From Armatimonadota bacterium (lineage in GTDB: Bacteria > Armatimonadota > Zipacnadia > Zipacnadales > UBA5352): a stretch of DNA of 19,403 nt. The notes beneath the pieces were generated by a model. That model was not told the origin of the DNA, searched no databases, and saw only the letters and a list, made by a program, of their open reading frames with translations. The DNA lies in the NCBI GenBank assembly GCA_034722055.1, contig JAYENL010000295.1:1-19403 (forward strand). The letters run 5' to 3'. Positions 3,581 to 19,403 of the stretch are shown one piece after another (the first letter of the stretch is position 1; every line of letters begins with the position of its first letter). Position numbers and translations under genes: made by a program.

Positions 3581-4921
3581 CTATTCCTCTTCGCCACCCT
3601 GCACAGCTTCATCGCCAGCGGCTCTCCCTCTCCCACGCTGCTCGCCGCCGATGGCCTCCGCCAGTATGGCCTCCATATCGCGTGCCACAACGCCGGGCGA
3701 GTAGTGCTCGTCAACGGCCTCAGCGCCGGAGCCGGCCAGGCGGTCTGCCTCCCCGGCATCATCCATCAGCCCCGCCAGCGCCGCGGCAAGGGCCTCGGGC
3801 TCCTCGGGCTCAAAGAGCACGCCCCCGCCGGTCAGCTCCATCATCTCCGGGAAGATGCCCTCCTCCGGCACCACCACCGGCAGGCCCGCGGCCATCGCCT
3901 CCAGCGCCGTCGTGCCCAGCGCCTCCCGTTGGATGCTGAGCTGGCAGAAGGCGCTCAGCGAGTGCAGCAGGGCGATCTTCTCATCAAGCGGCACCTCGCC
4001 GAGGTGCTCGAAGCGATCCCCCAGGCCGGCCCGGCGCACGTCGCGCCGGATCTGCCCCCAGTAGCGCCTGCTCAGCACCTGGCCGGCGACGCGTAGCCGG
4101 AAGTCGCGGTCATCCTCGGCCAGCAGCCGGCAGGCCTCCACCAGCACGTGCAGGCCCTTGCGCGGCGTGATCACCGACAGGTAGCCGATGATGAACGGCT
4201 CCACCGCACGTGGCCGGTGGCGCCGGAGCCTCTCGGCGTCCACCGCCGAGCGCACAACCGCCATGCGCGCCGGCTCCACGTCCAGGAATCCCGCCATCTG
4301 CCCGGCGTATGCGTGGCCCGGAGCGACGAAGCGATCCACCGACCGCGCGTTGCGCCGGATCAGCTTCACGGCCTCCGACCGGTGCGGCTCGGGGATGCCC
4401 TCGATGAACCCGTCCTCCCCCTTCACCTCGCAGACGACCGCCACTGCCAGCCGGCGCTTGACCTCAGGCGCGATTCCCGACAGCATCGAGTTGGTGATGC
4501 TCACCACGTCCGGGCGCGCCTCACGCTCGAGAAAACCCACCAGGCGGTCGAGCTGGGCGCGCTGGCGTCCCTGGGCGCCGGCCAGCACCGACACGGTCAT
4601 GGGACCGAGCTGCGAGGCCGTGGTGCTGACGGCGAAGCGTGAGACGAGGCGCAGCAGGGCGGGATGGTCGAGGGCGCGCGTGATGAAGCGCGGCAGGCGC
4701 GCGAAGAGGCCGGAGAGCTGCTCCAGGCGGGCGTTGATGGCTCCCATGTGCACGTTCCTGACGGGCAGCACGTGGTCGCCCTCGATGCGCAGCGGCGTGT
4801 ACAGCGGCACGATCTGCACCTGGTGGCCGCGGGCCATCAGCGCGCGCGCCATGGCCGCGTCACGGGCGCACGCCCCGCAGTACATGCTCGCCGCGCCGGC
4901 GGCGAGGTGCACGATGCGCAT
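3581..4921 (-). CDS. Glycosyltransferase family 4 (GT-B, RfaB-like)
   Basis: 446 aa: MRIVHL start, GHQV, PDVV, GYLS.ITPRKGLHVLVEA, E-x7-E motif EALGTTALE, AMAAGLPVV. Start overlaps the upstream stop (TGATG). Confidence 0.92.
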   Translation of the reverse strand: MRIVHLAAGAASMYCGACARDAAMARALMARGHQVQIVPLYTPLRIEGDHVLPVRNVHMGAINARLEQLSGLFARLPRFITRALDHPALLRLVSRFAVSTTASQLGPMTVSVLAGAQGRQRAQLDRLVGFLEREARPDVVSITNSMLSGIAPEVKRRLAVAVVCEVKGEDGFIEGIPEPHRSEAVKLIRRNARSVDRFVAPGHAYAGQMAGFLDVEPARMAVVRSAVDAERLRRHRPRAVEPFIIGYLSVITPRKGLHVLVEACRLLAEDDRDFRLRVAGQVLSRRYWGQIRRDVRRAGLGDRFEHLGEVPLDEKIALLHSLSAFCQLSIQREALGTTALEAMAAGLPVVVPEEGIFPEMMELTGGGVLFEPEEPEALAAALAGLMDDAGEADRLAGSGAEAVDEHYSPGVVARDMEAILAEAIGGEQRGRGRAAGDEAVQGGEEE

Positions 4922-5841
4922 CAGCCCTCTTCCCCCACCATCGACTGCATCAGCGCCAGGGAGGCGATGCCGTAGTAGGTGTACTCCACGTCGGCGCCCG
5001 CGTCCGATGGCGAGGCGCCGAAGCCGCCCTGCGGCCGGGCCGCCGAGCGGATGAAGCGGGCCAGGGCAGGCAGGTCCAGCGCCGCCAGCGATCCCAGCAT
5101 GACCAGCGTCAGCAGGCCGGTGAAGCTGGAGAGCAGGTCGCCCTCCGGTGCGTCACGGTGGGCGCGGAGGCCCCCGTCGTCGGCTTGCATGCCGGCCACG
5201 AAGTCGGCCGCGCCCCGGGCCGCGTCGGCCTCCAGGCCGCCGCGTATCAGCAGCACCCCGGCCGCCGCGGCGGTGGCGTTCGTCTGGGCGCGGTCTGAGT
5301 CCCCACGCTCGACGTAGCCCCCGGAGGGCCGCTGCAGAGCCTGCAGCGCGGGCACGGGATCCGGCACGTCAGGCGCCACCTGCTCCAGCATCTGCACGCA
5401 GAGCGATCCCAGGAAAGTACCGTATGCGCTCAGCTCACCCGAGCAGGACGCGAACCCCCCGTCCGACAGCGACTGCCGCCGGACCACCTCCGCGAGATGG
5501 CCGCGGTCGATCCTGGGGACCAGCGAGCGCCGGCGGAGGAGCCGATCGATGCTGAGCATGCTGAAGGCCTCCAGCAGATTGTCGATGCCCGCAGGGATCT
5601 GTCCCAGGAAGCCCTTCGCCGTGGTCTCGAACGCCGCCGACTGCGGCGCGACCAGATCCAGCGCTCTGAGAGCGAAGTCCGTGTAGTAGAGGTCGGCCGG
5701 CCCCTCCCGGCCCGGGAAGCCGCCGCCGGGCGCCTCCTGAGCCTCGACCCATGCCGCCTGCGGGCCGATGAATCCCTCACCCAGACCGTGAGCGCCGCTG
5801 CGGAGGATGCCATCCACCAGGTCCAGGTAGCCCACTGTCAC
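4921..5841 (-). CDS. Prenyltransferase/squalene-oxidase repeat protein (single alpha/alpha barrel, GGTase-beta-like)
   Basis: About 306 aa from GTG 5841 (GTGA overlap with the upstream stop). Five QW-like repeats: QEAPGGGF, QSLSDGGF, QRPSGGY, QADDGGL, ARPQGGF. Also DLYYTDFALR and DVEYTYYGIASL. No DxDD. Confidence 0.85.
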   Translation of the reverse strand: MTVGYLDLVDGILRSGAHGLGEGFIGPQAAWVEAQEAPGGGFPGREGPADLYYTDFALRALDLVAPQSAAFETTAKGFLGQIPAGIDNLLEAFSMLSIDRLLRRRSLVPRIDRGHLAEVVRRQSLSDGGFASCSGELSAYGTFLGSLCVQMLEQVAPDVPDPVPALQALQRPSGGYVERGDSDRAQTNATAAAAGVLLIRGGLEADAARGAADFVAGMQADDGGLRAHRDAPEGDLLSSFTGLLTLVMLGSLAALDLPALARFIRSAARPQGGFGASPSDAGADVEYTYYGIASLALMQSMVGEEG

Positions 5842-7580
5842 GCCCCCGGCTGCGCGGCGGGACGCTCCCGGAGGATCGCCCTGACCAGGAAGCGCAGCAG
5901 CTCGCCGATAGCGTCCGGGCGGGCGTCGTCGGCCAGCTCCCCGCATCTCATCTTCAGGCGGTCCACCAGCACCCGGGCCTTCTCGAAGGCCCCCAACTCC
6001 TCGTAGAGGGCGCGGACCTCGGCCACGATGCGCTCGGCGCTGTCCTCCTCCGACACGCGTGAGAGGCGCTCCCAGCCGCCGGCCTGGATGGCGAAGGCGC
6101 GCAGGATCGTCGGTCGGCCGGCCAGCACATCCTGCCCCAGCGCGGCCTTGTTGCGGCGGTCCAGCCGCCAGTCCTCGAGGTCGTTGAGCACCTGGTAGGC
6201 CTCGCCGAGATAGTTTGAGAAGCGGCCCAGGAGCTCCTCATCCCGCTCCGCGCCCGAGGCCCTCAGCCCCGCATACAGCGCCACCTCGAAGGCCGGCGCG
6301 GTCTTCAGGGCGGCGATGGCGAGGGCATCGACGGGCCGGAGGGCCCCCGGCTGGCGGCGCATCCACTCCAGCTCCGCGCCCTGCCCGCGGCACAGGTCAA
6401 GCTGCGCGCGGGACAGCCGCCCCAGGATGTCAGCCACGGCCTCGGCGCCCAGCTCGCCCGAGCGCGCGGCGATCAGGCGGTAGCCCAGGCCCACCAGCCA
6501 GTCCCCGACGTTCACCGCCGGGCCGACGCCGTGCGAGCGATGCAGCGTGGGGCGGCCGTAGCGAAGCTCGTCGCCGTCGGCGATGTCATCGTGCACCAGG
6601 GAGGCCTTGTGCAGGGCCTCGATGGCCACGCCGAGGTCGCGCACGGGGTCGGTGACTAGCTCGGCAGTAGGCGCGTCGGGCGCCAGCGCCGCCACCCCAT
6701 GCGTCCCCAGCGCCCAGGCCGCCAGCGTCACGAACGGCCTCAGGCGCTTGCCTCCGCAGCGCAGCCAGTCGATTCCGACCGCCTCCACCGCGAGCATCGG
6801 GTCGGCGGTCTGGCCCTCAGCGTCGAGCTCCAGCGCCTGGGGTGTGACGTGAGGTCGCAGGATCGCGTCCATTGCCTCCCGCTCGAAGATGCGACGGGCC
6901 TCCCGCAGCAGCGGAACGGGGCTGCGCGTGGCCGACGAGGCGTCGGACCGGCTGGCCGCCAGGAGCTCCAGGATCAGCCCCGGCTCTGTCTCCGTCCGCT
7001 CGCAGCCGTCGCGGAGCAGGGGAATGGCCTGATTGGGCACGCCCAGGTCGGCGATGGGCTCGAAGGACTCGTCCAGCGACTCCAGGCAGGCCACGCCGAG
7101 AACGGCGTCGGCCTCGCCGTCAAGCACCTTCATGATCACCGAGGACGTGCCCTCGGCCACGACCACCTCGTAGCCCAAGTCTCGGGCGCGGGAGACCAGA
7201 TCGTGGATGACGCAGGCCCCGCAGCCGGCACAGTGCAGGCCGACGGAGTCGAATCGCCCCCTGCAGGCGTCGGGATCCCGCAGGCACTTCGGCAGCAGCA
7301 GCAACCGGCGGCTCGGCCGCACGGCCTCGAACTGCTCCCGCCAGAAGCCGTTGCTGACCGCCACCATGGCGAAGCCCAGGAACTCACGCGGCAGGTCCAG
7401 CCGCTGCAGCACCTGCTCGCCCAGCTCCGCGAGCGTGTCACGCGACGGCGCGGCGTCCCGTGGCACACCGCAGGCGACCTCGGCGGCGGCCTCACGTATG
7501 CGCCGCCGGACCTGGGGTGCCTGCGGGACGCGCTTGGTCTCGTCAGGCGCTGCCTGCGCGGGCACGGGCTGCCCGGTCAT
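5838..7580 (-). CDS. DUF116-like Cys-rich domain fused to a trans-polyprenyl diphosphate synthase
   Basis: 580 aa. N-terminal RRLLLLPKCLR..C...HCAGCGAC...GVACL...DGC (DUF116-like). C-terminal GGKRLRP, FARM HDDIAD..RYG.PTLH, GQGAEL, KTA, SARM YQVLNDLED. GAGGAG RBS. Confidence 0.88.
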   Translation of the reverse strand: MTGQPVPAQAAPDETKRVPQAPQVRRRIREAAAEVACGVPRDAAPSRDTLAELGEQVLQRLDLPREFLGFAMVAVSNGFWREQFEAVRPSRRLLLLPKCLRDPDACRGRFDSVGLHCAGCGACVIHDLVSRARDLGYEVVVAEGTSSVIMKVLDGEADAVLGVACLESLDESFEPIADLGVPNQAIPLLRDGCERTETEPGLILELLAASRSDASSATRSPVPLLREARRIFEREAMDAILRPHVTPQALELDAEGQTADPMLAVEAVGIDWLRCGGKRLRPFVTLAAWALGTHGVAALAPDAPTAELVTDPVRDLGVAIEALHKASLVHDDIADGDELRYGRPTLHRSHGVGPAVNVGDWLVGLGYRLIAARSGELGAEAVADILGRLSRAQLDLCRGQGAELEWMRRQPGALRPVDALAIAALKTAPAFEVALYAGLRASGAERDEELLGRFSNYLGEAYQVLNDLEDWRLDRRNKAALGQDVLAGRPTILRAFAIQAGGWERLSRVSEEDSAERIVAEVRALYEELGAFEKARVLVDRLKMRCGELADDARPDAIGELLRFLVRAILRERPAAQPGA

Positions 7581-7628
7581 CGTGCGATCTCCTCGGCGAT
7601 TGCCGGTGTGATCTGGTCTTCCGTCAGT

Positions 7629-9065
7629 CTACCCCGCATCCGGGCCGATGCACCACAGCTTCTCGTAGCCGCGCACATACATGCGGTCTCCGTCGAAGAC
7701 CGGCGTGCTGCGGACCGTGTCGCCGAGCTGATTGCGGGCGACCTCCACGAACTCGCCGCCGGGCTCGAAGATCACCGTGGTGCCGTTCTCGTGGGTGGCG
7801 AAGAGCAAATCACCCGCCAGCACGATGCTGGCGAAGACGTCGCCCTTCCCCATCTGCAGGTCCTGCTCGTAGACGATCTCGCCCGTCTCCGCGTCGAGGC
7901 AGGAGAGCACGTTGTGGCGGGTGACGGCGTAGATCAGCCCATCCTCGACGATTGGGGACGCGTAGTAGCGGTTCTTGTTGGGCTCGGCCTCCCACAGCAG
8001 CTCGGGCTCGAACGGGCTCTCCGCGGTCTCGGGCAGGCGGTAGGCGCGGCTGATGGCGTCGCCGCCCTGGTTGTCGATGTAGTAGAGCACGCCATCCTCC
8101 ACCATCGGCTCCGAGCCCCACTCCAGCTTGCCCAGGCCGCTGGCGATGATCTCACCGTCCTCGGCACGCACGACATCGCCCTTGCAGGTGAAGATGAGCG
8201 TCTCGCCGCCGATCTCCTGCACCCACGGCGTGCCCCAGCTCCAAGCGGCCTCCGGCTGCGCCCATATCTCCTCCCCGGTCGCGGGATCGAGCGCCCGGAG
8301 GTGGTTGATGTGCACTACCAGCTTCCCATCCGCCATCACGGGCGTGGTGGCGAGCCCGTAGTCGTGGGGGTGCTTCTCGATGAAGCGCCCCCACACGCGG
8401 TTGCCCTCCATGTCGTAGCAGGCGGCGATCCCGTTGCCGTAGATCACCCACACATGCTGGCCGTCGCTGATAGGGGTGGGCGTGCTGTAGCCATTGTAGC
8501 CGTGTGCGGGCGGGCGCACGTACCAGGTCTCAGCGAGGGGCTTGATCTGCGCCTGAAGCTGCTGCTGCTTCTGGCGCAGCTCTCTGAACTGCGCCTTCAG
8601 ATCCTCGTTGGACTGATCGTCCTGAAGCTGCTTCTTGACCTTGCGGAGCTCAGCGTTGACCTTTCCCAGCTCTCCCCGAAGCCGGTTGAACTCCTGTGTC
8701 TTGTCCTCAAGGTCCGCGACCTCATCGGGCGGCGCGACGTCCGCCGGCTCGTTGGAGGCCTGCCACCGGATCACACCGCTGCCCACGTCAACACACAGCA
8801 GCAGCGCCGGCTCCGAGCACGTGTAAAGCCTGTCGCCGACGATGATCGGCAGGGAGTTGGAGCTGCCCGGCATCTCCGTGGCCCACACCACGTTCTCGTC
8901 CGGCGACCAGGTGATCACCGGGCTCGCGTCAGGATACTCCCCCGTCCCGTCCGTGCGCCAGCCGACGTAGTCGTCGGCGGCCGCCGGCACCAGCGTCACT
9001 GCGACGAGAAGCCCCAGGAGCGCCTGGAGCGGGCCTGCAAGGCCAGAAAGCCATCCGTCCGCCAT
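7629..9065 (-). CDS. Secreted PQQ-like (BamB/AfsK-type) beta-propeller protein with a coiled-coil insertion
   Basis: Signal peptide ending VPAAA; WRTDGTG, W...NVVW.TEMPG..NS.PIIVGD, repeated xxPxxxDG and DxxTGExxW blades; helical K/Q/E/L-rich insert at about 8550-8720. ATG 9065 is best spaced from GGAGG; alternatives are 9071 and 9074. Confidence 0.85.
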   Translation of the reverse strand: MADGWLSGLAGPLQALLGLLVAVTLVPAAADDYVGWRTDGTGEYPDASPVITWSPDENVVWATEMPGSSNSLPIIVGDRLYTCSEPALLLCVDVGSGVIRWQASNEPADVAPPDEVADLEDKTQEFNRLRGELGKVNAELRKVKKQLQDDQSNEDLKAQFRELRQKQQQLQAQIKPLAETWYVRPPAHGYNGYSTPTPISDGQHVWVIYGNGIAACYDMEGNRVWGRFIEKHPHDYGLATTPVMADGKLVVHINHLRALDPATGEEIWAQPEAAWSWGTPWVQEIGGETLIFTCKGDVVRAEDGEIIASGLGKLEWGSEPMVEDGVLYYIDNQGGDAISRAYRLPETAESPFEPELLWEAEPNKNRYYASPIVEDGLIYAVTRHNVLSCLDAETGEIVYEQDLQMGKGDVFASIVLAGDLLFATHENGTTVIFEPGGEFVEVARNQLGDTVRSTPVFDGDRMYVRGYEKLWCIGPDAG

Positions 9066-9138
9066 CCCCATCATCCTCCCGCCATAGTGCGGGCGCCGTC
9101 TGGCGGCGCCCGGGCTGCATCAGGTCTACCACTTGCGC

Positions 9139-10953
9139 CTATTGACACCGGAGTGCTGACGAAGGTTCTGTGCCCGGCGGTCGCATCCGGGCCGAAAACG
9201 CCTCGCGCGCCCGTCCCAGCGCCTCCACCGTCCAGGCCACCGGGTAGAGGTCCTCAGCATACCACAGGGCGGCGAAGTAGAGGCCGATCGGCGTCGGCTC
9301 CGTCCAGGACCCATCCTTCACGCGTCGGAGCAGATACGTTACGCCCGTCTCCAGCGCCGGCTGCACATCGCGAGTAGCCGTGAAGCGGGTCAGCGCGCTG
9401 ACCGCCACCGCCGTCTCCTCCATGCTGCTGCGCACACCGGCGGCGCCGCCCCAGCCGCCATCCTCGTTCTGCGCTCGGAGCAGATACTGCACGCCACGCC
9501 GGGCGGCGTCATCATCAGCGCGGCCGCAGTCTCCCCAGGCCGCCAGCACCCGGGCGGTCCCGAAGACGGGGTTGCGCTGCCCCGGCGCCTCCTGGTTGCC
9601 GAACCACAGCGGCACCCAGGAGCCGTCCTCCCGCTGCGTGGCCTCCAGGTAGCGGAAGCCCTGCCGGCCGACCCTCCTGAGGTTGGCGCCGATCAGCCCT
9701 GCCAGCCTCGATTCCTCGCCGCTGTTGACCATCCCCAGCAGCGCATTGTGCGCTCGCAGGGCGTGCCCCGTGATGTCAGGCGAGCTCTGGTCGAAGGGCA
9801 GCCGGCCCCACCCCTGGCAGAAGGTGGGCCAGCCGCCATCGAGATTGTGGAGCCCGACGAGCCAGAAGCCGCCCGCCATCGCGGCCTGCTGCTCGCCCAT
9901 CGCGGCCATCAGGAGCACCGCGCCCGCGGTGTCGTCCGCGTCGGGCACTCCGCCCGAGAGGTGCGTCCAGGCCCATCCGCCCGGCGCCGCGCCAGTGAAG
10001 GGGTGCACCTCGGAGTGCTGCTGCTCCAGGAGCCAGCGGCGCGCGCTCCCGGCCAGCCCGGGTGGGATGCCGCCCGAGTGGCGCAGGGCCTGCAGGGCGT
10101 TGGTGGTGACCCACACGGAGAGGTTCGTGTCGATCGGCCAGCTTCCGTCCTCCCGCGCGGTGTCGCGCAGGAACTGCAGGGATCGCTGCACGACGCCGTC
10201 CTCCGCCCCCAGCACGGGAATCAGACTCATCGCCACGAAGCCCGTCAGCGGGGCGGCCTCCAGAAAGCCGCCGTGTTCGGGCTGCAGCTCCGGCAGCCTT
10301 CCCAGCGCCCGACCCAGTGTCAGCGAGCGCATGAGACGGGTGAGCGGGTTGAGCGGCGGGCTGTGACGGTGGATGACCGCCCCGACGGCGATCAATGCCG
10401 GCAGGGCGTAGCTGACCACCTGCAGCCGCAGAAGCCGGTGCCATGAGCGCGGCAGCGCGGCCAGCTCCACCGGCAGCGACGGGACCTGGCTCCAGGGCAC
10501 CAGCCCGGCCAGGGCACAGGCCGCCAGGACGGGAGCCGCGAAGGTCCGGTCCTCACCATAGCGCCGGGTCACGGCCCCGACGATCTCCTCCGGCCGCTCG
10601 CCCGCGACGTCCGCAACATGCTCCCGCGCCTGCGCAAGCGCCTGGCCCTCCGCATCCGCTACTGTGAGGGCGCAGATCGACAGCAGCGTGGCCGCGATGT
10701 TGGAGGGGCTGTCGGGCGTGTCGCCCCAGCCGCCGTCCGCATTCTGCGTCCGCTGCAGCCAGCGAACGGCGGCCTCAACCAGCTCTCGGTCCTCGTCCCG
10801 GCCGGCCATCCGCAAGGCCATGGCGGCCGTTGCGGTGGAGACCGCCGAGGATGACAGGCGCCCCTCCCACCACGATCCGCCGGCGCGCAGGGACAGGAGG
10901 TGCTCGCGCGTGGCGTCGATGGCGGCCTCCAGGCGGTCGGGGTCAATGCTCAT
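9139..10953 (-). CDS. Squalene-hopene cyclase-like class II terpene cyclase
   Basis: 604 aa from ATG 10953 (ATGA overlap). WEGRLSSS, QW repeats QNADGGWG, REDGSWP, HNLDGGWP, QREDGSW, QNEDGGWG; GGWAW followed by the catalytic PDADDTA (DxDD); C-terminal LWY.EDLYP. Confidence 0.88.
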   Translation of the reverse strand: MSIDPDRLEAAIDATREHLLSLRAGGSWWEGRLSSSAVSTATAAMALRMAGRDEDRELVEAAVRWLQRTQNADGGWGDTPDSPSNIAATLLSICALTVADAEGQALAQAREHVADVAGERPEEIVGAVTRRYGEDRTFAAPVLAACALAGLVPWSQVPSLPVELAALPRSWHRLLRLQVVSYALPALIAVGAVIHRHSPPLNPLTRLMRSLTLGRALGRLPELQPEHGGFLEAAPLTGFVAMSLIPVLGAEDGVVQRSLQFLRDTAREDGSWPIDTNLSVWVTTNALQALRHSGGIPPGLAGSARRWLLEQQHSEVHPFTGAAPGGWAWTHLSGGVPDADDTAGAVLLMAAMGEQQAAMAGGFWLVGLHNLDGGWPTFCQGWGRLPFDQSSPDITGHALRAHNALLGMVNSGEESRLAGLIGANLRRVGRQGFRYLEATQREDGSWVPLWFGNQEAPGQRNPVFGTARVLAAWGDCGRADDDAARRGVQYLLRAQNEDGGWGGAAGVRSSMEETAVAVSALTRFTATRDVQPALETGVTYLLRRVKDGSWTEPTPIGLYFAALWYAEDLYPVAWTVEALGRAREAFSARMRPPGTEPSSALRCQ

Positions 10954-12440
10954 CGCGACGCCCGCCAGGCGTGCCAGGCGAAGAGGGCCTTCCACCGCAC
11001 GACCTGCCCCCGGCCCAGAAGCTGCAGCAGGAGCCTGCGGCCCACGGGGACGCCGGCGGCACGCTGGTTGTCCCAGAACATGCGAGGGACCTCGCGGAAG
11101 CTCACGTCGTAGCAGCGCTCGATGAGCCGCCAGTGCAGGGGCGCCAGGTCGCGGCGCGTGGGCGTCGGGCTTCCGTCAATGGGCGCATACAGCACCGGGA
11201 AGATCATCAACGGCTCGTGCGCGATCTCCTCGACCCACTCCAGGTTGCGCCGCACGTGCTCGGGACGCTCCCCGGGCATGCGCATCATGAGGCTGGCCAT
11301 GGGCATGAAGCCGGCCGCGATCAGCCGCCGAAGCTGATGGGCGCAGAACTCGCCCCACTGAGCCGGCTCCACGTCGCCGAGCTTGGCGGCGCCGCTGCGC
11401 GCCAGCAGCTCCCCGTCCGCCGACTCCACGCCGAGGTTGATCCACGGATGCGTGCAGCCGGTGTCGCCGACCATGAGCTGTCGGACCTCGCGCAGCTCGT
11501 CGTCGGAGTAGCCGCCGACGCTGATGACATTGGCGTGATCGGTCTGGATCAGCCCCACGCCCTTCACCCGGCGCATTCGCCGCAGAAGATCGATGAGGGC
11601 CTGGGGATCGACATTCCGGGCGGAGCCGCCGTAGCGCAGCATGTCCTCGCTGATGGTGCTCACGCCGGTGAGGCCCGCCGCCAGGTTCCTCTGCAGGTCC
11701 GCCAGAATTGTCTCCTCCGGGAGGTGCCGCATGGGCACCGGGCCCATGGTGCAGTAGTCGCAGCCCATCCCGCAGCCGCGCGACAGCTCCACCACGCCCA
11801 TGGTGGCCGGCCCGCGGATGGCAGGGATGTCCGCCGACCCCACGCCTCGGCCCTCCATGACGGCGGGAAGCTCCTCGCGGTCGGTGATGCTGCGGAACAG
11901 CTCCGACACGTTCCCCTCCACCTGGCCGGTCACGAGGTGGTCAACGCCCAGCTCCCGGCGCAGGCCCTGGTCGGCCACGAGCTGCCAGGCTCCGGGGCCG
12001 CCAATTACGACCCGAGCCTGAGGCGCCTGCTGCCTCAAGCGCGCAATGCGCGCCATCAGCTCGCGCACCAGCCGCCGGGCGTAGATCTCTCCGCCGGCGA
12101 TGGCGGTCATGGTCGTGGAGCTCATGCCCAGCCCGCAGGCCTCGCCGGCGCTGACCGCGATGATGCGCGTGTCCGGGCCGACGTGCTCCGAGAGGCGGGT
12201 GGGATGCACCACCACCACATCATCATCCGCGAAGCCGTCCGAGAGCAGGGACGCCTCCACGCGCCGGAGGCCCATGGGCGCCAGGCAGGTCTGCGGCGTG
12301 GGGGCCAGCAGGCGGTCGAGGATCGGCCGCGGCGTGGTTGTGGTCTGGCTGGCCGCCAGCATCCCGGCGAACAGCGTGCGGTGATCCGCCATCAGGATGC
12401 GGTCCGCGGTGAGTACGATGGGCGTGCCACGACGCCTCAC
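10950..12440 (-). CDS. B12-binding-domain / radical SAM protein
   Basis: 496 aa from GTG 12440 (GTGA overlap with the ferredoxin stop). VELSRGCGMGCDYC (CxxxCxxC), N-terminal B12-binding-like region (APMGLRRVEASL...RVVIGGPGAW...GQVEG), and LGVESAD. Confidence 0.9.
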   Translation of the reverse strand: MRRRGTPIVLTADRILMADHRTLFAGMLAASQTTTTPRPILDRLLAPTPQTCLAPMGLRRVEASLLSDGFADDDVVVVHPTRLSEHVGPDTRIIAVSAGEACGLGMSSTTMTAIAGGEIYARRLVRELMARIARLRQQAPQARVVIGGPGAWQLVADQGLRRELGVDHLVTGQVEGNVSELFRSITDREELPAVMEGRGVGSADIPAIRGPATMGVVELSRGCGMGCDYCTMGPVPMRHLPEETILADLQRNLAAGLTGVSTISEDMLRYGGSARNVDPQALIDLLRRMRRVKGVGLIQTDHANVISVGGYSDDELREVRQLMVGDTGCTHPWINLGVESADGELLARSGAAKLGDVEPAQWGEFCAHQLRRLIAAGFMPMASLMMRMPGERPEHVRRNLEWVEEIAHEPLMIFPVLYAPIDGSPTPTRRDLAPLHWRLIERCYDVSFREVPRMFWDNQRAAGVPVGRRLLLQLLGRGQVVRWKALFAWHAWRASR

Positions 12441-13303
12441 CGGCCGCCACCCCCCGGTCCCCGCTGGCCGGTGGCGCGGTCCAGGGCGTCGATGAGCGCG
12501 TCGATCTCGGCGTGGACCGTGGACTCCTCCTCGCACTCGCCGGCGGCCTCTGTAGCGCGGCCACACTCCTCACAGATGACCGCGCCGGCGCGGGCGAACG
12601 CGGCGTCCTCCGCACCGGGGACCTCGCCGCACACCGGGCATCGGCGGCCGGTGCGCACGTAGAACATCCGCCGCGCCGCAGCGTCGGGCTCCATGCATGT
12701 GCCCGGCGCGCCGGCGATGGCCGGCTCGTCGCACAGCGGAAACATAATGGCCCCGTGGGGGCAGATGCGGGCGCAGGCGGGGCAGCCAGGCTTACACAGG
12801 TCCGGGCTCGTCGCCACCACCCGAGCCGCCTTGTCCCTCTCGTAGACGCCGAAGAGGCAGAACTGCAGACAGTGCCCGCAGCTCGTGCATTGCGATCGGT
12901 CCAGGACCGGATACCACCGTGCAGGGGTCTCGTCCTCGATCTCGCGGAGCCGCCCCTCACCCTCGGCCGGGCCCAGGGCCTCGCTGATGGCAGAAAGCGC
13001 CTCGCCCGCTGATTCCGCCGCGCCGAGGTCGATAGCGCAGCGAAGCTCACCCTGCACGCCGCGGTCGCGCAGCACGCACTCTGCCGGCCGGGGATGCAGC
13101 CAGGAGGCGACCGCCAGCGGACCCTCGAGGGAGCGTAGCTCCGGCCAGACGGCGCTGTGCTCAGTCAGATGATAGAGGTGCGGAATCAGGATCACGTCAC
13201 GGCCGGCGCTGCGGCACCGTGACGCGATGTGGTCCTCCAGGACCCTCCGGTCGGGATGCTCTCCGCGATGCCGGGACACGATCACCGTCGGCCTCTCCGC
13301 CAC
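12437..13303 (-). CDS. 4Fe-4S dicluster ferredoxin-domain protein with an extra CxxC..CxxC module
   Basis: 288 aa: WYPVLDRSQCTSCGHCLQFCLFGVY, CKPGCPACARICPHGAIMFP, then CPVCG...CEECG and an acidic C-terminal helix EIDALIDALD. Confidence 0.85.
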   Translation of the reverse strand: MAERPTVIVSRHRGEHPDRRVLEDHIASRCRSAGRDVILIPHLYHLTEHSAVWPELRSLEGPLAVASWLHPRPAECVLRDRGVQGELRCAIDLGAAESAGEALSAISEALGPAEGEGRLREIEDETPARWYPVLDRSQCTSCGHCLQFCLFGVYERDKAARVVATSPDLCKPGCPACARICPHGAIMFPLCDEPAIAGAPGTCMEPDAAARRMFYVRTGRRCPVCGEVPGAEDAAFARAGAVICEECGRATEAAGECEEESTVHAEIDALIDALDRATGQRGPGGGGR

Positions 13304-13375
13304 AACCTGTCACCCCACCGATCTCCTCACACGCGATAGCTGCCACGCCGCGATCGCCGGCGCGACGGTGCACAC

Positions 13376-13404
13376 ACAATACCGCGAGCGGACGCTTTTG
13401 TCCA
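13376..13404 (-). promoter_or_regulatory. sigma70-type promoter of the minus-strand terpenoid operon
   Basis: On the minus strand: TGGACA (13404-13399), 17 nt spacer, TATTGT (13381-13376), about 70 nt upstream of GTG 13303. Confidence 0.6.
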
Positions 13405-13817: not shown

Positions 13818-13846
13818 TTGACGGGCTGACGCGCCCGGAATACTAT
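13818..13846 (+). promoter_or_regulatory. sigma70-type promoter of the plus-strand Fe-S/propeller operon
   Basis: TTGACG (13818-13823), 17 nt spacer, TACTAT (13841-13846); GAGG RBS and ATG 13886 follow. Confidence 0.75.
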
Positions 13847-13885
13847 GTCGCACAACCGCTCCCATCTCGGGCCCCCGAGGAATCC

Positions 13886-15493
13886 ATGGGGAACAGCACT
13901 AGCCAGGACAAGCGTCTGCCCCATCGCCGCGTCCCGTCCACGGTCGAGGACGAGCAAGACGGGGTCGAGGCTCCGTCAGGGACGGGGCCAGCGGAGAGCC
14001 CGAAGAGCAGTGGAACTGCACACACGCTGGCGATCGCAATCCCCGCAGTGCTCGGCTTCATCGGCGCAGTCTTGATCGGCCTGTGGCTGCTCAGCGACAG
14101 ACAGCCGGTGGGGGTGGAGCCCCGGACGCCGCAGGAGCACACGCCGGCGGCCAGAGCGCAGGGGCAGCCCGCCCCCAGCCCGGCGGCGGCCACCGACCAG
14201 CCGGCGGGCGGAGAGGGCGGCACCGGTCAAGCTGCCGGCGCGCAGCCCGGTCAGCGCCGGGCTCAGGCGAGCACCACGCAGGCGTCCGGCCCGGCTCCGG
14301 CTACCACGCAGGGCGGCGGGAGGTGGCCGTGGTTCCGGGGCGTCGGCCGCGACGCCATCGCTGACGAGGAGGTGGGGCTGGCACGAAGCTGGCCGGAGGG
14401 CGGCCCGCGCAAGCTCTGGTCAAAAAAGATGCTGGGGCCCGGCCACGCCGGCGCCGCCATCCTGGGCGGTCGCGTTTATGTACTCGACTACGACCTCGGG
14501 GCCCGTGCCGACGTGCTGCGCTGCATGTCGCTGCAGGACGGCAGCGACATCTGGAAGCAGTCCTACGCCGTGCAGATCAAGGACAACCACGGCATCTCTC
14601 GCACCGTGCCCGCCGTGACCGAGCAGTTCGTGGTCTCCCTCGGCCCCATGGGGCACGTCACCTGCGCGCGCGCTGACAGCGGCGAGATCATCTGGCAGAT
14701 CGACCTGAAGCAGAAGTACGGCACCAAGATCCCGGGATGGTACGCCGGCCAGTGCCCGCTGATCGATGACGGGAAGGCTATCGTGGCACCGGGCGGCCAG
14801 GCCCTCATGATCGCAGTGGATTGCGCCTCCGGCCAGGTGGTGTGGCAGACGCCCAATCCGCGGGGGTGGCAGATGACGCACACATCCGTCATGCCGTGCA
14901 CTCTGGGCGGCCGGAAGGTCTACGTCTACACCGCCAGCGGCGGCATCGTGGGCGTGTCCCCCAGCGACGGCTCCCTGCTGTGGGAACAGCCGGGGTGGAG
15001 CGTCAACACGGCCAACGTGCCCAGCCCACTTCCGGTGGGTAATGACCGCCTGTTCATCACCGGCGGCTATGGCGCCGGCAGCATGCTGCTCAGCCTCGCA
15101 GGCGGCAGTCCCAGCGAGGTCTGGCGGATCCCGCAGAAGGTCTTCGGCTCCCATCAGCACACGCCTATCTACTACCGGGATCACATCTTCGGCGTCAGCA
15201 TGGACCAGCAGCTCGTGTGCCTGAACCTGCAGGGCGAGCGGGTGTGGAGCAGTGGCCACACCAACACCCTCGGCATCGGGCCCTACATCATTGCCGAGGG
15301 CCTCATCTACGCCCTCAACGGCAACGACGGGACCCTGGTGATGGCGGAGGCCAGCACCTCCGGGTACAAGGAGCTGGCGCGGGCGAAGGTCCTGCCGGGA
15401 ACGAACGCCTGGGGGCCGATGGCCCTGGCCGGCGGCAAGCTCATCTGCCGCGACCGGACCACGATGGTCTGTCTGGATGTGAAGAACCCCTGA
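13886..15493 (+). CDS. Membrane-anchored PQQ-like beta-propeller protein
   Basis: 535 aa from ATG 13886: one TM helix (LAIAIPAVLGFIGAVLIGLWLL), A/P/G/Q linker, WPWFRG, W..GGPRKLW, multiple PQQ-type blades, and a C-terminal WGPMALAGGKLICRD...CLD. The ORF-track start at 13472 is an over-extension. Confidence 0.88.
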   Translation: MGNSTSQDKRLPHRRVPSTVEDEQDGVEAPSGTGPAESPKSSGTAHTLAIAIPAVLGFIGAVLIGLWLLSDRQPVGVEPRTPQEHTPAARAQGQPAPSPAAATDQPAGGEGGTGQAAGAQPGQRRAQASTTQASGPAPATTQGGGRWPWFRGVGRDAIADEEVGLARSWPEGGPRKLWSKKMLGPGHAGAAILGGRVYVLDYDLGARADVLRCMSLQDGSDIWKQSYAVQIKDNHGISRTVPAVTEQFVVSLGPMGHVTCARADSGEIIWQIDLKQKYGTKIPGWYAGQCPLIDDGKAIVAPGGQALMIAVDCASGQVVWQTPNPRGWQMTHTSVMPCTLGGRKVYVYTASGGIVGVSPSDGSLLWEQPGWSVNTANVPSPLPVGNDRLFITGGYGAGSMLLSLAGGSPSEVWRIPQKVFGSHQHTPIYYRDHIFGVSMDQQLVCLNLQGERVWSSGHTNTLGIGPYIIAEGLIYALNGNDGTLVMAEASTSGYKELARAKVLPGTNAWGPMALAGGKLICRDRTTMVCLDVKNP

Positions 15494-16494
15494 TGGCCCC
15501 CGGTCGGCACGAGGGCATGCTGTTCACCGCCGCGGCCGTCGTGCTGGCCGCGCTGCTCGGCGGCTGCGAGGCCCGCGAGCAGATCGCGCGCGATACGGTG
15601 GCCGTGAAGGCAGCGGACACGGCTGCGGAGATCGAGGCCGGACAGGCCGCCCAGAAGTGGGTGGCCTGGCGCCAGGTGGGGAGGATCGACACCGGCCTGT
15701 CGAAGCCGCGGGCCATCGCCGTGGGCACGGACGGGAACATCTATGCGGGAGGCGAGGGCGCCATCCGCTGCTTCAGTCCCGAGGGCGAGGTGCAGTGGGA
15801 GCTTCCGGTTGACGGGGAGGTGTGGGCGCTGGAGGTGGCGGACGCGGGGACCATGTTCGTGGCCTACATCGAGAGCGTGGCCGTCCTCGACCCCTCCGGA
15901 CGGGAGCACCTGAGAATCACGCCGCAGGATCGCAGGACGTGGATCACGTCGCTGGCGGTCAGTGATCATGCTATTTTCGTCGCAGACGCTGGGGCGCGGA
16001 AGGTCTGGCGCTACGACCGGCAGGGAACTCCCACGGGCGAGATCGGGAGCGAGGACCCCCAGCGCGGCATCCCGTCACTGGCCACCCCCAGCCCGCACCT
16101 GGACATCGCGCTCTCCGGGGACGCCATCCTCGTCGCCAACCCGGGGCGACACTCCGTGCAGCGTCACGCAGTGGCGGACGGCGCGCTGCTGGGACGCTGG
16201 GGGGACTACGGCCCGGACGTTGAGGGCTTCAGCGGCTGCTGCAATCCCACGGACCTGGCCGTTCTGCCGGACGGCCGGGTGGTGACCAGCGAGAAGGGCA
16301 GCCCGCGCGTGAAGCTCTACTCGCCCGACGGCGAGCTGCTCTCGGTGGTGGCGCCGCCGTCGGAGTTCCGGGACGACACCGCGGGCATCGACCTGGCGGC
16401 GGACTCGTCGGGGCGAGTCCTGACGCTTGACCCGGTGCGCGGGGAGATCCGCATCTACGAGGAGATCGCGGGGTCGGAGGAGGAGACGGGATGA
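15493..16494 (+). CDS. NHL-repeat/6-bladed beta-propeller lipoprotein with a vicinal Cys-Cys motif
   Basis: ATG 15493 (TGATG overlap; alternative 15517). Lipobox LLGG-C; PRAIAVGTDGNIY, IFVADAG.RKV, VANPGRH, FSGCCNPTDLAVLPDGRVVTSEKG. Confidence 0.8.
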   Translation: MAPGRHEGMLFTAAAVVLAALLGGCEAREQIARDTVAVKAADTAAEIEAGQAAQKWVAWRQVGRIDTGLSKPRAIAVGTDGNIYAGGEGAIRCFSPEGEVQWELPVDGEVWALEVADAGTMFVAYIESVAVLDPSGREHLRITPQDRRTWITSLAVSDHAIFVADAGARKVWRYDRQGTPTGEIGSEDPQRGIPSLATPSPHLDIALSGDAILVANPGRHSVQRHAVADGALLGRWGDYGPDVEGFSGCCNPTDLAVLPDGRVVTSEKGSPRVKLYSPDGELLSVVAPPSEFRDDTAGIDLAADSSGRVLTLDPVRGEIRIYEEIAGSEEETG

Positions 16495-16733
16495 AGAGCG
16501 CTCGACGGGAGTTCCTCAGGAGTATCCTGCGAGGCGGGGTGGGCGCGCTGCTGGTGGGGGGCACTGGGTGGCTGGCGCTGCGCTCCGGCGAGCCCTGCTG
16601 GTCGGATGGCGGCTGCCGACGGTGCCCGGAGCTGCGGGGCTGCGAGCTGCCTGAGGCGCGCATCGCACGCATGCAGCGGGGCATCCCGGAACCGGCTGAC
16701 CAGCCCCCGACCGGCGAGGGGCCCGCGAGCTGA
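16491..16733 (+). CDS. Small protein with a twin-arginine-like N-terminus/TM segment and four Cys
   Basis: 80 aa: SARREFLR, a hydrophobic helix, then C-x5-C-x2-C-x5-C. ATGA overlap with the upstream stop and GAGGAG RBS. Confidence 0.75.
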   Translation: MKSARREFLRSILRGGVGALLVGGTGWLALRSGEPCWSDGGCRRCPELRGCELPEARIARMQRGIPEPADQPPTGEGPAS

Positions 16734-16738
16734 GCCCA

Positions 16739-17545
16739 ATGGCTGATGAGCGAGACGAGCGGATGAACAGGCGGAAGTTCCTGACCGAGGCCGCGCGCCT
16801 GCTCGGGATCGCGGGCGCCGCCGGCACGCTCGGCGGCGTGGCCATGGCCGGTCAACGGGACAATATGGTGTGGCAGATCGACCCGGAGAAGTGCATCGCC
16901 TGCGGCAACTGCGCCACGGCCTGTGTGCTGACGCCCTCGGCTGCCAAGTGCGTGCACGATGTGGCCCTCTGCGGCTTCTGCGACCTGTGCTTCGGGTTCT
17001 TCGCCGAGCAGCGGCCCGGCGATACTGAGGCCCCTGAGAACCAGCGCTGCCCTACCGGCGCCATCATCCGCAACTTCGTCGAGGAGCCCTACTACGAGTA
17101 CATTATCGACGAGCCCAAGTGCATCGGCTGCGCCACGTGCGTGGAGGGCTGCATGCAGTACGGCAACGGCTCGCTGATCATGCAGGTGCGCCACGACCGC
17201 TGCGTCAACTGCAACGAGTGCGCCATCGCCGCACAGTGCCCGGCGGACGCCTTCGTGCGCGTCCCGGCCGATGAGCCCTACCTGCTCAAGAGCGAGAAGC
17301 TCGAGAAACAGGCGGAGGAGGCCGAGGAGGAGCCGGCTGCGTCTCCCCGCCCACCGGAGCCATCGCCCCAGCAGCCAACCTCAGAGGGGCCGCCCGAGAT
17401 GCCCCGGGAGGCGGCGGGCACACCGGAGGCCGCGCAGCCCCCGGAGGTGGAGCCGGACGCTCCCCAGCCGCCGGCGCCGCAGCCCGAGCCGGCTCCGGAG
17501 GAGGCGGACTCCCTGGAGGAGCTTATCGGCGGGGATCTGCGATGA
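16739..17545 (+). CDS. Tat-signal polyferredoxin (multi 4Fe-4S) with a Pro/Glu-rich tail
   Basis: NRRKFL Tat motif; CIACGNCATAC, CGFCDLC...CPTGAI, CIGCATCVEGC, CVNCNEC....CPADAF; disordered P/E tail. Start is 16739 or the downstream in-frame ATG at 16763. Confidence 0.88.
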   Translation: MADERDERMNRRKFLTEAARLLGIAGAAGTLGGVAMAGQRDNMVWQIDPEKCIACGNCATACVLTPSAAKCVHDVALCGFCDLCFGFFAEQRPGDTEAPENQRCPTGAIIRNFVEEPYYEYIIDEPKCIGCATCVEGCMQYGNGSLIMQVRHDRCVNCNECAIAAQCPADAFVRVPADEPYLLKSEKLEKQAEEAEEEPAASPRPPEPSPQQPTSEGPPEMPREAAGTPEAAQPPEVEPDAPQPPAPQPEPAPEEADSLEELIGGDLR

Positions 17546-18843
17546 CGCGCCGCGCCATCGCCCTTGCCGTCATCGTGGCCCTGCTCGTCCCCGCGCTGGT
17601 GCTGGCGGCGGAGCGCTTCCCACCGCCCGAGTTCAGCTTCGACTACCAGTTCCCGGACGTTCGCACGCCGCGGCCGCGGCCTCCCATCTTCGAGTGGATC
17701 GATGTGGCCGTGCTGGCGGCGGCGCTGGGGCTGGCGGCCTGGCTGGCGCTGAGGCGCCGCTCGCGCCGGGAGCTGTTCGTGCTGGCGGTCTTCGGACTGC
17801 TCTACTTTGGCTTCTATCGCCAGGGCTGCGTCTGCGCCATCGGGGCGATCCAGAACCTGGCGCTGGCCCTGGGCACCGACTACGTGCTGCCCATCAGCGT
17901 GGGCGCCTTCCTGCTGCTGCCGCTGCTGTTCGCGCTGGTCTTCGGGCGCGTCTTCTGCGCCGGCGTCTGCCCGCTGGGCGCAGTTCAGGAGATCGTGCTG
18001 CTGAGGCCGGTGCGCGTGCCCGTGTGGCTGGAGCGGTCCCTGGGGCTGTTCCCCTTCATTTACCTGGGCTTCGCGGTGCTCTTCGCGTGGACGGACACCG
18101 GCTTCCTCATCTGCCGCTACGACCCGTACATTGCGTTCTTCCGCCTCGGCGGGCTGACCCACATCGTCATCGCCAGCGTGGCGCTGCTGGTGGTGGCGGT
18201 GTTCATCGGCCGGCCCTACTGCCGCTTCGTCTGCCCCCTGGCGGCCCTGTTCCGGCTGGTGGCGCCGCTGTCGGTGTGGCACGTGCGGCTCGGTGGCGAG
18301 GAGTGCATCAACTGCCACCTGTGCGCCGACGCCTGTCCCTACAACGCCATCCGGCCGCCGACTGCCGAGGAGCGCTCGCATCCGCCCTCGACGGGCCGTT
18401 GGACGCTGGCCGCGATCCTCGTCGCCCTCCCGCTGCTTATCGCCGGTGGCGCATGGCTGGGCCACGGGGCCAGCGACTACCTCGCGGGCTACAACTCCAG
18501 GGTGGCGCTGGCCGCCCGCGTCTACGCCGAGCAGCAGGAGGAGGTAGAGGGCACCACAGAGGAGTCCGAAGCGTTCTATGCACAGGGCAAGGAGGTGACA
18601 GGACTCTATCAGGAGGCCGCCGAAATCAGGAGCAGGTTCGAGGTGGGGAGCGCCGTGCTGGGCGCCTGGATCGGGCTGGTAATCGGCGCCCGACTTGTGG
18701 CCGTGTCCCTGCGACGAACGCGAGAGCACTATGAGGTCGATCCGGCCGCGTGCGTCTCCTGCGGGCGGTGCTTCTCATCGTGCCCCATCGAGAAGGCGCG
18801 CAGGAGCGGCAGACCATTGCAGGCGGCTGAGAGCACACAATGA
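17542..18843 (+). CDS. Integral-membrane 4Fe-4S protein of the NapH/MauN/NosR/RdxA type
   Basis: 433 aa with several TM helices; GCVCAIG, GRVFCAGVCPLG and RPYCRFVCPL (two CxxxCP motifs); ferredoxin motifs CINCHLCADACP and CVSCGRCFSSCP. ATGA overlap. Confidence 0.88.
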   Translation: MTRRAIALAVIVALLVPALVLAAERFPPPEFSFDYQFPDVRTPRPRPPIFEWIDVAVLAAALGLAAWLALRRRSRRELFVLAVFGLLYFGFYRQGCVCAIGAIQNLALALGTDYVLPISVGAFLLLPLLFALVFGRVFCAGVCPLGAVQEIVLLRPVRVPVWLERSLGLFPFIYLGFAVLFAWTDTGFLICRYDPYIAFFRLGGLTHIVIASVALLVVAVFIGRPYCRFVCPLAALFRLVAPLSVWHVRLGGEECINCHLCADACPYNAIRPPTAEERSHPPSTGRWTLAAILVALPLLIAGGAWLGHGASDYLAGYNSRVALAARVYAEQQEEVEGTTEESEAFYAQGKEVTGLYQEAAEIRSRFEVGSAVLGAWIGLVIGARLVAVSLRRTREHYEVDPAACVSCGRCFSSCPIEKARRSGRPLQAAESTQ

Positions 18844-19403
18844 GCCACGACGCCATGGCGGGCGAAAGCCAGCAGGTTCGTGCAGATGAGGAGCGGGGCG
18901 AGGAGCGCCGGCCGCAGGATCTGCGCTACCTCATCGCCACCCGGGTGGCGATCGTGGCGGGGGTCTTCTGCGCCATCGTCTTCGCCCTCATGCTGGCGAA
19001 CCTCATCCGCGCTCGCAGCGCCGATCCCACCGCCCCCGCCAGGATCGAGCAGCTCAAGGCCAAGGCGAATCGGGATGGCTGGACCCCGGAGCTCAGGGAG
19101 CAGTTCAGCACCCTCGACCAGCAGCTTCGCCGGGAGTACTTCAGGAGCCGACGCTTCGCCATCCAGGGCATCTTCATGCTGCTGGGCGGCGTAGTGGTGC
19201 TGCTGATCTCCCTGCAGTTCGCGGCCCAGTGGGCCGATGAGGGTCCCTTTCCCGACGCCAGCTCGGTGGAACAGCCCATCCTGGCCTCGGCGGTGAATCG
19301 CCGGGCGGTCGTGGCCATGGGGCTGCTGATGGGCGGGCTGCTCGCGGCCCTCGCGGTGCTGGCGCGCCATGATGCTGTCGCGGCGTACGCCAGGCAGGCA
19401 GAG
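18840..19403 (+). CDS. Membrane protein, N-terminal part, running off the window end (possibly the anchor of another PQQ-like propeller)
   Basis: ATG 18840 overlaps the upstream TGA (ATGA). The frame is open for 188 codons to the window end: MSHDAMAGES...VAIVAGVFCAIVFALMLANL...FMLLGGVVVLLISL...VVAMGLLMGGLLAALAVLA (three hydrophobic helices). Missing from the ORF track because there is no stop in the window. Confidence 0.85.
   Translation, partial: MSHDAMAGESQQVRADEERGEERRPQDLRYLIATRVAIVAGVFCAIVFALMLANLIRARSADPTAPARIEQLKAKANRDGWTPELREQFSTLDQQLRREYFRSRRFAIQGIFMLLGGVVVLLISLQFAAQWADEGPFPDASSVEQPILASAVNRRAVVAMGLLMGGLLAALAVLARHDAVAAYARQAE

Follow-up and report, generated by a model that had tools for sequence, protein, structure and literature searches.

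What do two operons placed back to back on one contig of an Armatimonadota bacterium do together, when one of them reads as terpenoid biosynthesis and the other as a series of membrane and exported redox proteins? The window analysed here is the whole stretch of 19,403 nucleotides (nt) of contig C295 (JAYENL010000295.1; 19.4 kb, a complete contig) of genome G000 (GCA_034722055.1; 6.1 Mb, 92.7% complete), whose closest named relatives are Armatimonadota (Ca. Zipacnadia), with identities of up to 68%. The original prediction for this stretch, made from its letters alone, held that the minus-strand operon makes a cyclised polyprenoid that the plus-strand operon uses or matures. The answer reached here is that the cluster, common to several bacterial phyla, probably makes a ring-containing isoprenoid lipid without squalene and is loosely coupled, via a shared membrane exporter, to an electron-transfer chain that crosses the inner membrane. 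The interpretation modestly favoured is that of a squalene-independent pathway for a cyclic polyprenoid lipid (module A) and an optional electron conduit (module B), each attached to an envelope system composed of a GT4 glycosyltransferase, an ATP-binding cassette (ABC)/FtsX transporter and beta-propellers (module C). Genes, motifs, homologies, linkage and distribution were observed, and from them we infer every reaction and cargo. The features of the window are the following.

3581..4921, minus strand: GT4 glycosyltransferase with an N-terminal YCGxC motif (PF00534 and motif)
4921..5841, minus strand: single (alpha/alpha)6 barrel, protein-prenyltransferase beta-like (PF00432, AlphaFold2 (AF2) model, fold matches)
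5838..7580, minus strand: DUF116 fused to a trans-polyprenyl diphosphate synthase (PF01976 and PF00348)
7629..9074, minus strand: secreted PQQ/BamB-like beta-propeller (PF13360; N-terminal hydrophobic segment)
9139..10953, minus strand: two-domain class II terpene cyclase of the orphan 'SHC-like' type, 604 amino acids (aa) (PF13249 and PF13243)
10950..12440, minus strand: B12-type radical S-adenosylmethionine (SAM) enzyme, Grs sister clade (alignment to GrsB, tree)
12437..13303, minus strand: 2x[4Fe-4S] ferredoxin with an extra N-terminal domain (Fer4 families, conserved Cys)
13376..13404, minus strand: candidate sigma-70-like promoter of the terpenoid operon (consensus match only)
13818..13846, plus strand: candidate sigma-70-like promoter of the redox/transport operon (consensus match only)
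13886..15493, plus strand: membrane-anchored PQQ-like beta-propeller (PF13360; transmembrane segment at 48-66)
15493..16494, plus strand: NHL six-bladed propeller lipoprotein with invariant vicinal cysteines, GCCNP (PF01436)
16491..16733, plus strand: small protein with a twin-arginine translocation (Tat) signal and four Cys (sequence, Tat motif)
16739..17545, plus strand: Tat-signal polyferredoxin with four Cys groups, NapG/MauM-like role (Fer4 families, conserved Cys, Tat motif)
17542..18843, plus strand: NapH/MauN-like membrane polyferredoxin with 7 transmembrane segments (PF12801)
18840..19403, plus strand: 5' part of a membrane-plus-propeller gene of about 700 aa, cut by the contig end (rest on contig C58)

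The original prediction had listed seven minus-strand and at least six plus-strand genes, and family profile searches and open reading frames verified seven and six operon genes, respectively, with the families it had named. The overlaps that it had seen at four of the six minus-strand junctions (4, 4, 4 and 1 nt) were likewise confirmed, the remaining two junctions being gapped by 64 and 48 nt. Start codons of the radical SAM, cyclase and barrel genes were assigned from these overlaps and from homologue alignments, and Tat motifs, lipobox and transmembrane segments come from a simple motif/hydropathy script, with no dedicated predictor. The 582-nt intergenic gap between the operons contains two divergent sigma-70-like sites (2 found versus 0.0 expected in shuffles).

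Do the two operons belong together, as had been claimed? The gene order of the window is repeated in five relatives (G008, G017, G021, G027 and G040), and therefore the grouping of the genes is not due to chance. Moreover, terpenoid, redox and transport genes form one co-directional block in Parabacteroides sp. PF5-6 (G061), in another member of the Bacteroidales (G244) and in a Phycisphaerae metagenome-assembled genome (MAG; G062), so the link between the operons is real; linkage across three phyla and in two arrangements exceeds chance. The PQQ-like propellers present in both operons, which had been taken as the tie between them, serve poorly for this purpose, as the genome holds 11-15 paralogues of them, and the real tie is an ABC/FtsX transporter encoded on another contig, C58.

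The full cluster comprises about 20 genes in about 32 kb, the window being two-thirds of it. The plus-strand operon continues on C58 with the 3' part of the split gene, a fused BfuC/B (NuoEF-like) gene, a BfuA/NfnA-like 2Fe-2S/FAD protein, an ABC ATPase, an FtsX permease of 1135 aa and two propellers; five propellers and an FtsX-type permease are thus carried by the whole cluster. The two contigs share no sequence overlap, and therefore the join was made by synteny: both pieces of the split gene align to one protein of 665-744 aa in three relatives, and the complete order is uninterrupted in G008, G017 and G021. Among the best 80 of 379 confirmed cyclase loci, each with flanks of 10 kb or to the contig end, the cyclase is accompanied by the DUF116 synthase in 70, by the barrel in 43 and by the ferredoxin in 37. 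The ABC ATPase gene comes immediately after the barrel gene in 6 loci, and orthologues of the small Tat four-Cys protein were present in 7 of 17 regions examined.

Other genes were noted around the cluster. A CobW-like GTPase and a cysteine desulfurase (12 loci each; L051, L055, L060, L062, L068, L075, L101 and others) flank the terpenoid genes, which is consistent with needs for metal and iron-sulfur (Fe-S) loading. Locus L137 (G249:C1, after 320000) shows tandem repeats of few-gene cassettes, followed by RHS-like open frames, beside the redox genes. What looked like a fusion of barrel and cyclase in L077 extends across an N gap and was rejected as an artefact. The window itself also contains a MATE-family transporter gene (408-1859, plus strand; PF01554), of which no homologue cluster recurs beside the cyclase in other loci, and a gene for a cold-shock domain protein (2525-2890, plus strand; PF00313).

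Is the cyclase a squalene-hopene cyclase (SHC)? It is the sole cyclase found in the genome and reaches 89 bits against the true SHC model TIGR01507, whose cut-off is 431. Residues D338/D340/D341, aligned to the DxDD motif of SHC, are invariant in 71 homologue rows, and the other SHC catalytic residues are also kept. An 'SHC-like' clade with a polyprenyl synthase in its vicinity, for which a non-squalene precursor has been proposed, was described by Santana-Molina (2020, PMC7306690), and McShea (2025, PMC12414744) gives its function as not demonstrated. By its sequence the window cyclase fits this orphan clade: it has two domains, a length within the range of 550-700 aa, intact DxDD and catalytic residues, a polyprenyl synthase next door and homologues in the PVC and FCB groups and Acidobacteria, the assignment being based on its 41-50% identity to homologues from Pirellulales and other groups. 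Features of this cluster that do not appear in the consulted parts of these two descriptions are its occurrence in Armatimonadota, the redox operon and the transporter, the DUF116 and barrel proteins and the exchange of radical SAM families. A cyclase-barrel heterodimer, an idea prompted by the rate shift on the dimer surface reported in PMC12414744, obtained a complex prediction score of 0.03.

The plainest alternative is that an ordinary hopanoid cyclase, supplied with squalene from elsewhere, happens to lie next to a respiratory operon with which it has nothing to do. The conserved catalytic residues and the incompleteness of G000 (92.7% complete) speak for it, as do squalene/phytoene synthase family (PF00494) genes in 5 of 33 cyclase-bearing relatives (6 of all 61 relatives) and, as hpnC/D-type genes, in 3 of 5 distant planctomycete or acidobacterial cyclase carriers. 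Against it stand the score of the cyclase, far below the SHC cut-off, the failure of plus-operon genes to reach the cut-offs for NapH, BamB and PQQ-dehydrogenase, the fusion of the operons in three genomes of two other phyla, and the distribution of the squalene genes. The original prediction, which had denied that this is a hopanoid cluster, had named hpnCDE genes elsewhere as the finding that would count against it; PF00494 was found neither in G000, G061 and G062 nor in 28 of the 33 cyclase-bearing relatives, and HpnH gave no match above cut-off in G000. The plain hopanoid explanation is largely refuted by this distribution and is regarded as very improbable. The cluster resembles hopanoid (hpn) clusters in having prenyl supply, a class II cyclase, radical SAM tailoring, a glycosyltransferase and an exporter, and differs in that no HpnCDE/Sqs or HpnH was found here, the synthase is of the head-to-tail type with an Fe-S domain, and the exporter is of the ABC/FtsX type. 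The hopanoid exporter HpnN is of the resistance-nodulation-division type. A parallel for a squalene-independent route is the sporulene pathway of Bacillus (HepS/T, YtpB, SqhC), in which a homologue of SHC forms rings from a polyprenyl chain of the head-to-tail type (PMC7306690), although no YtpB-like gene was seen here and DUF116, the barrel, the ferredoxin and the radical SAM enzyme are additional.

If not squalene, which chain would the cyclase receive? The DUF116-fused synthase has an Ala five residues ahead of the first DDxxD, an invariant Lys and RY replacing the usual RR of solved synthases (65/65 rows, L091 being excluded from the alignment). A small residue (Ala) at that position is typical of long-chain synthases, and because of it the product would be a long all-trans chain. 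The only other trans-synthase in the genome is an ordinary IspA-type enzyme. The DUF116 domain has seven Cys that are invariant in 65/65 rows and probably carries an Fe-S cluster; a single-sequence AF2 model of the protein (pLDDT 46) was not used. The fusion of DUF116 to the synthase has been reported, with a predicted role in electron transfer (PMC5898192), and a Bipolaricaulota terpenoid cluster with DUF116, IspH, SHC, HpnH and polyprenyl synthetase, without HpnCDE, is described in a figure legend (10.1101/2025.11.21.689855, fig. S12). DUF116 plus synthase might be the unexplained precursor route in some anaerobic hopanoid makers. The idea that this pair is the missing squalene source of anammox/Geobacter was also considered: none of the 71 genomes of the class that was sampled had a canonical SHC, and DUF116 occurred only with the SHC-like type (4/4 strong matches); no stand-alone DUF116 family was retrieved.

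The barrel protein, modelled with a pLDDT of 94.9, is closest in fold to the beta subunits of RabGGTase, GGTase-I and FTase (TM-score 0.73, Z 23-25) and less similar to monodomain cyclases (Z 18-20; MstE 18). The Zn ligands of the prenyltransferases, which we take to be Asp, Cys and His, are in sequence alignment replaced in part, Asp being kept, Cys changed to Leu and His to Tyr, and the barrel has an invariant Asp/Tyr/Glu set of its own. It thus shares the (alpha/alpha)6 architecture with protein prenyltransferase beta and MstE, the latter being less similar, and differs from the former by the lost Zn ligands and the lack of an alpha-subunit-like gene among the conserved neighbours, no genome-wide search having been made for one. 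This fold, together with the five propellers and the FtsX-type permease, has led us to consider that the barrel is a bacterial protein prenyltransferase that anchors envelope proteins, such as the propellers, with a (cyclised) polyprenyl group, and that the transporter, of LolCDE/MacB type, sorts them. The proposal is judged improbable: the Cys and the His of the Zn site that activates the acceptor thiol are absent, the cluster shows no alpha-subunit gene, the barrel has no signal peptide and the propellers are exported, and transporter and propellers are often present without the module to which the barrel belongs.

Two observations concern the neighbours of these genes in planctomycetes. In loci of the Pirellulaceae type (L032, L037, L041, L043 and L048), a YbgC/FadM-type thioesterase gene immediately precedes the barrel gene or lies close to it. 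Directly after the DUF116 synthase, 16 planctomycete loci contain a conserved gene of about 185 aa (for example L043:13725-14285), not found in G000, that has no Pfam match, weak NCBIfam and PDB matches and a weak chorismate-lyase signal in 1 of 14 members (E 0.014); if that identity were real, the gene would suggest an aromatic acceptor, that is, a meroterpenoid.

What would the radical SAM enzyme add? It aligns with Q4JC22 from S. acidocaldarius, named GrsB in PMC13023045, at 25% identity over 457 aa (E 3e-47, 159 bits), within the limits adopted for Grs homologues (E <= 1e-20 over at least 400 aa; 10.1101/2023.10.20.563219), tested here against GrsB. The family is compact, with 291 representatives at E<=1e-10 among 1.84 billion; all five of the ten second-tier representatives (about 30%) that have an organism name are archaeal (Nitrosopelagicus, Acidilobus, Bathyarchaeia, a euryarchaeote and Methanopyrus), and the structure matches an archaeal cluster with a TM-score of 0.89. 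In a FastTree phylogeny of 106 rows, limited to representatives of 470-600 aa with one distant outgroup and GrsB as the sole characterised row, the enzymes of the cluster form their own clade apart from GrsB (SH support 0.999). By alignment and tree, this is a bacterial sister clade of the archaeal ring synthases (Grs) for glycerol dialkyl glycerol tetraethers (GDGTs), enzymes that close cyclopentane rings on isoprenoid chains and act on membrane-spanning lipids (PMC13459092). It has in common with GrsA/GrsB full-length homology, a Rossmann-type N-terminus, the CxxxCxxC motif and membership of the same compact family; the low identity, the separate bacterial clade and the terpene-cyclase operon set it apart, and no GDGT substrate is known in the host. 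In other phyla the slot after the ferredoxin gene is filled by a SPASM-type radical SAM enzyme instead: the Grs-like family occupies it in 12 of the 80 loci, the SPASM type in 31, both in 0 and neither within the flank in 37. As two radical SAM families interchange in one slot, they may point to a C-H activation step on the lipid chain. The SPASM-type family may resemble Mss. Mss is a C-C coupling lipid enzyme (PMC13159169). The ferredoxin, whose Cys are conserved across homologues, is a probable reductant for the Fe-S enzymes of the cluster.

The genome also has two SPASM-type radical SAM genes elsewhere (C159:9174-10643, which adjoins another B12-type radical SAM gene, and C281:7104-8534), with 27% identity to the alternative family; they are possible membrane-spanning-lipid genes. 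Their existence, the action of Grs on membrane-spanning lipids, the interpretation of GrsA matches in planctomycete MAGs as membrane-lipid ring-makers (PMC11868695) and the 37 loci with neither radical SAM gene would fit a different explanation, in which the enzyme of the window modifies ordinary membrane lipids, forming rings or cross-links in lipids of the branched tetraether type, its neighbourhood is no more than lipid-related, and the cyclase pathway is separate. To this we give little credence: the gene is translationally coupled to those of the ferredoxin and the cyclase, the Grs-like enzymes keep a fixed slot (12/12 loci) and form a clade of their own, and the substrates of Grs are isoprenoid chains, which the cluster itself would supply.

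Is the plus-strand operon a known respiratory complex, the other finding that had been named as contrary to the original proposal? No redox protein in it exceeds the cut-off of a named family: the NapH-like protein reaches 49 bits against TIGR02163 (cut-off 213), and the PQQ-like propellers of the window 46-47 bits against BamB (TIGR03300, cut-off 285) and 27 bits against PQQ-dehydrogenase (TIGR03075, cut-off 480). The Cys of the Tat polyferredoxin are conserved across homologues, as is the GCCNP motif of the NHL lipoprotein (22 rows), for which no characterised close relative was found. The best solved matches of the NuoEF fusion on C58 are bifurcating subunits of the NfnB/HydB type (E 1e-217 to 1e-173), above NuoF of complex I, and such subunits are the core of the Bfu family (PMC9304861). 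This gene has a BfuBC core with FMN and Fe-S domains, including the C-terminal 2x[4Fe-4S], and resembles Bfu/NfnABC in having a BfuB-type subunit with an FMN site and 2Fe-2S domains of the thioredoxin-like kind and, as its partner, a BfuA-like protein that contains FAD and 2Fe-2S domains; it differs, as far as the consulted parts of that source go, in that C and B are fused here and linked to a NapH-like protein, a Tat ferredoxin and propellers. NapGH/MauMN/NosGH systems likewise pair a membrane polyferredoxin with a Tat-exported one, although the NapH-like protein is far below the family cut-off and the cluster shows neither a nitrate reductase gene nor one for an amine dehydrogenase. From these homologies, a wire between NAD(P)H/ferredoxin and the periplasm, composed of the NuoEF fusion, the NapH-like protein, the Tat ferredoxin, the small Tat protein and the NHL lipoprotein, is plausible.

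How tightly are the modules bound to one another? Counted by hand at author-set thresholds, with 11 weak NHL matches (E >= 1e-6) and a weak cyclase match of G028 (E 1e-11) excluded, the 61 relatives comprise 33 with the cyclase and 39 with the NHL lipoprotein; 29 have both, four the cyclase only (all less than 90% complete), ten the NHL lipoprotein only and 18 neither. Among 221 Bacteroidales genomes, the cyclase occurs in 10, the NapH-like protein in 36, FtsX in 35 and GT4 in 32, and all carriers of cyclase, FtsX and GT4 fall within the NapH-like set. In 201 Planctomycetota genomes the cyclase was found in 48, FtsX in 62 and the NapH-like protein in 24; FtsX is present in 46 of the 48 cyclase and in 22 of the 24 NapH-like genomes, and cyclase and NapH-like protein occur together in 18. 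These counts, which are limited by kinship and MAG gaps, show that the operons are associated, as originally proposed, and at the same time separable, the transporter being the common element. The dependence of the plus-strand operon on the terpenoid product, also part of the original prediction, is not borne out: this operon occurs without the cyclase in 26 of 36 Bacteroidales, 6 of 24 Planctomycetota and 10 of 39 relatives, and in the NHL-only relatives tested (91-95% complete) the DUF116 synthase is missing as well (5/5). As for GT4, its gene is indeed part of the minus-strand operon, but its supposed partnership with the terpenoid genes gives way to one with the redox/transport genes: all 32 Bacteroidales carriers have the NapH-like gene and only 6 the cyclase, and the 26 cyclase-less NapH-like genomes all have GT4. 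GT4 belongs to the transport/redox core, not to the terpenoid module.

Could module A nevertheless serve module B directly? One possibility, held to be unlikely, is that the product of module A is an electron carrier of the membrane or a prosthetic group, such as a cyclic-prenyl quinone substitute, used by B where ordinary quinones are missing, and that hosts lacking A run B on menaquinone. In its favour, G000 shows no quinone pathway (no PF02621, MenD below cut-off and, as the only UbiA, a decaprenyl-phosphate phosphoribosyltransferase), and a quinone prenyltransferase was found in 0 of 3 cyclase-bearing genomes (G000, G010 and G021) versus 2 of 3 cyclase-less genomes with module B (MenA in G020, MqnP-like in G023, none in G031). 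All ten cyclase-bearing Bacteroidales have module B, and the possible chorismate-lyase-like gene of planctomycetes, with its weak signal, also favours this proposal. It is countered by the size of the quinone comparison (six genomes, with one counter-example), by the 30 of 48 cyclase-bearing planctomycetes that have module A without the NapH-like marker, and by the general consideration that a polycyclic chain is better suited to a structural lipid than to a mobile carrier. The same type of UbiA was present in 5/5 relatives tested. A bolder version, rather unlikely in our estimate, would make the product a new class of bacterial isoprenoid: a Zn-free prenyltransferase would attach a long polyprenyl chain to an acceptor, the orphan cyclase would polycyclise it, an archaeal-type radical SAM enzyme would add further ring closures or cross-links, and the ABC/propeller system would export the product, which in quinone-less anaerobes would act as redox carrier or cofactor of an electron-bifurcating transmembrane chain.

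Under the favoured interpretation, that of a cyclic polyprenoid lipid and an optional conduit sharing one envelope system, the minus-strand terpenoid genes (module A) would work as follows. The DUF116-fused synthase would extend farnesyl diphosphate to the long chain, and the barrel protein may move this chain onto an acceptor, or else the Fe-S domain may help to remove the diphosphate. The SHC-like cyclase, whose catalytic residues are present, would protonate the terminal alkene and fold the chain into rings, and the Grs-like B12 radical SAM enzyme, with electrons from the ferredoxin, would close a further C-C bond on it. Module C (GT4, ABC ATPase, large FtsX permease and periplasmic propellers) is the proposed hub, which, judging from its families, would glycosylate the lipid or a lipid-like cargo and lift it from the inner membrane. 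Module B (the Bfu-type NADH/ferredoxin core, NapH-like protein, Tat ferredoxin and NHL lipoprotein) would be an electron conduit that crosses the inner membrane and serves the periplasmic side of C, its direction and acceptor being presumed. The distribution pattern shows A and B as optional add-ons to C and not to each other.

Several points weigh against this interpretation. hpnC/D-type genes occur in several cyclase carriers, so squalene is available in some hosts. A terpene-synthase-like signature in the synthase, NDxxD in the second motif, was rejected as not universal (38/65 rows). All four NapH-like Bacteroidales without GT4 carry the cyclase. FtsX is found without the terpenoid module in 25 of 35 Bacteroidales and with neither the terpenoid nor the redox module in 10 of 62 Planctomycetota, and therefore its cargo cannot always be a terpenoid. 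The genomes are related and mostly MAGs, and one query per marker with an author-set E-value threshold was used, so that Fisher P values overstate the associations. The order of the steps in module A is a guess, and its product and substrate are predictions from the genes.

What is then new, and what does it mean? That a cyclase of this kind is paired with a polyprenyl synthase has been published before, as a question left open (PMC7306690). The open-access literature searched, which does not extend to subscription papers, bioRxiv supplements or fig. S10 of PMC7306690, contained no mention of the link to Grs, of the exchange of radical SAM families, of the transporter as hub or of the fusion with a Bfu/NapGH-like chain, nor, in agreement with the original prediction, of any characterised pathway with this gene set. 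The same literature yielded no description of the ABC/FtsX-propeller system with a Bfu-type electron conduit, which is widespread (62/201 Planctomycetota and 35/221 Bacteroidales). What the enzymes of the SHC-like clade act on has been named as an unsolved question, one of relevance to the evolution of cyclases and to orphan fossil biomarkers (PMC7306690, PMC12414744), and this question becomes directly testable with a minimal gene set and with cultured carriers, namely Parabacteroides sp. PF5-6 and Blastopirellula marina. Bacterial Grs homologues gain a context other than tetraether lipids, and the GrsA matches of planctomycete MAGs that have been read as ring-makers for branched GDGTs (PMC11868695) may partly be members of this clade.

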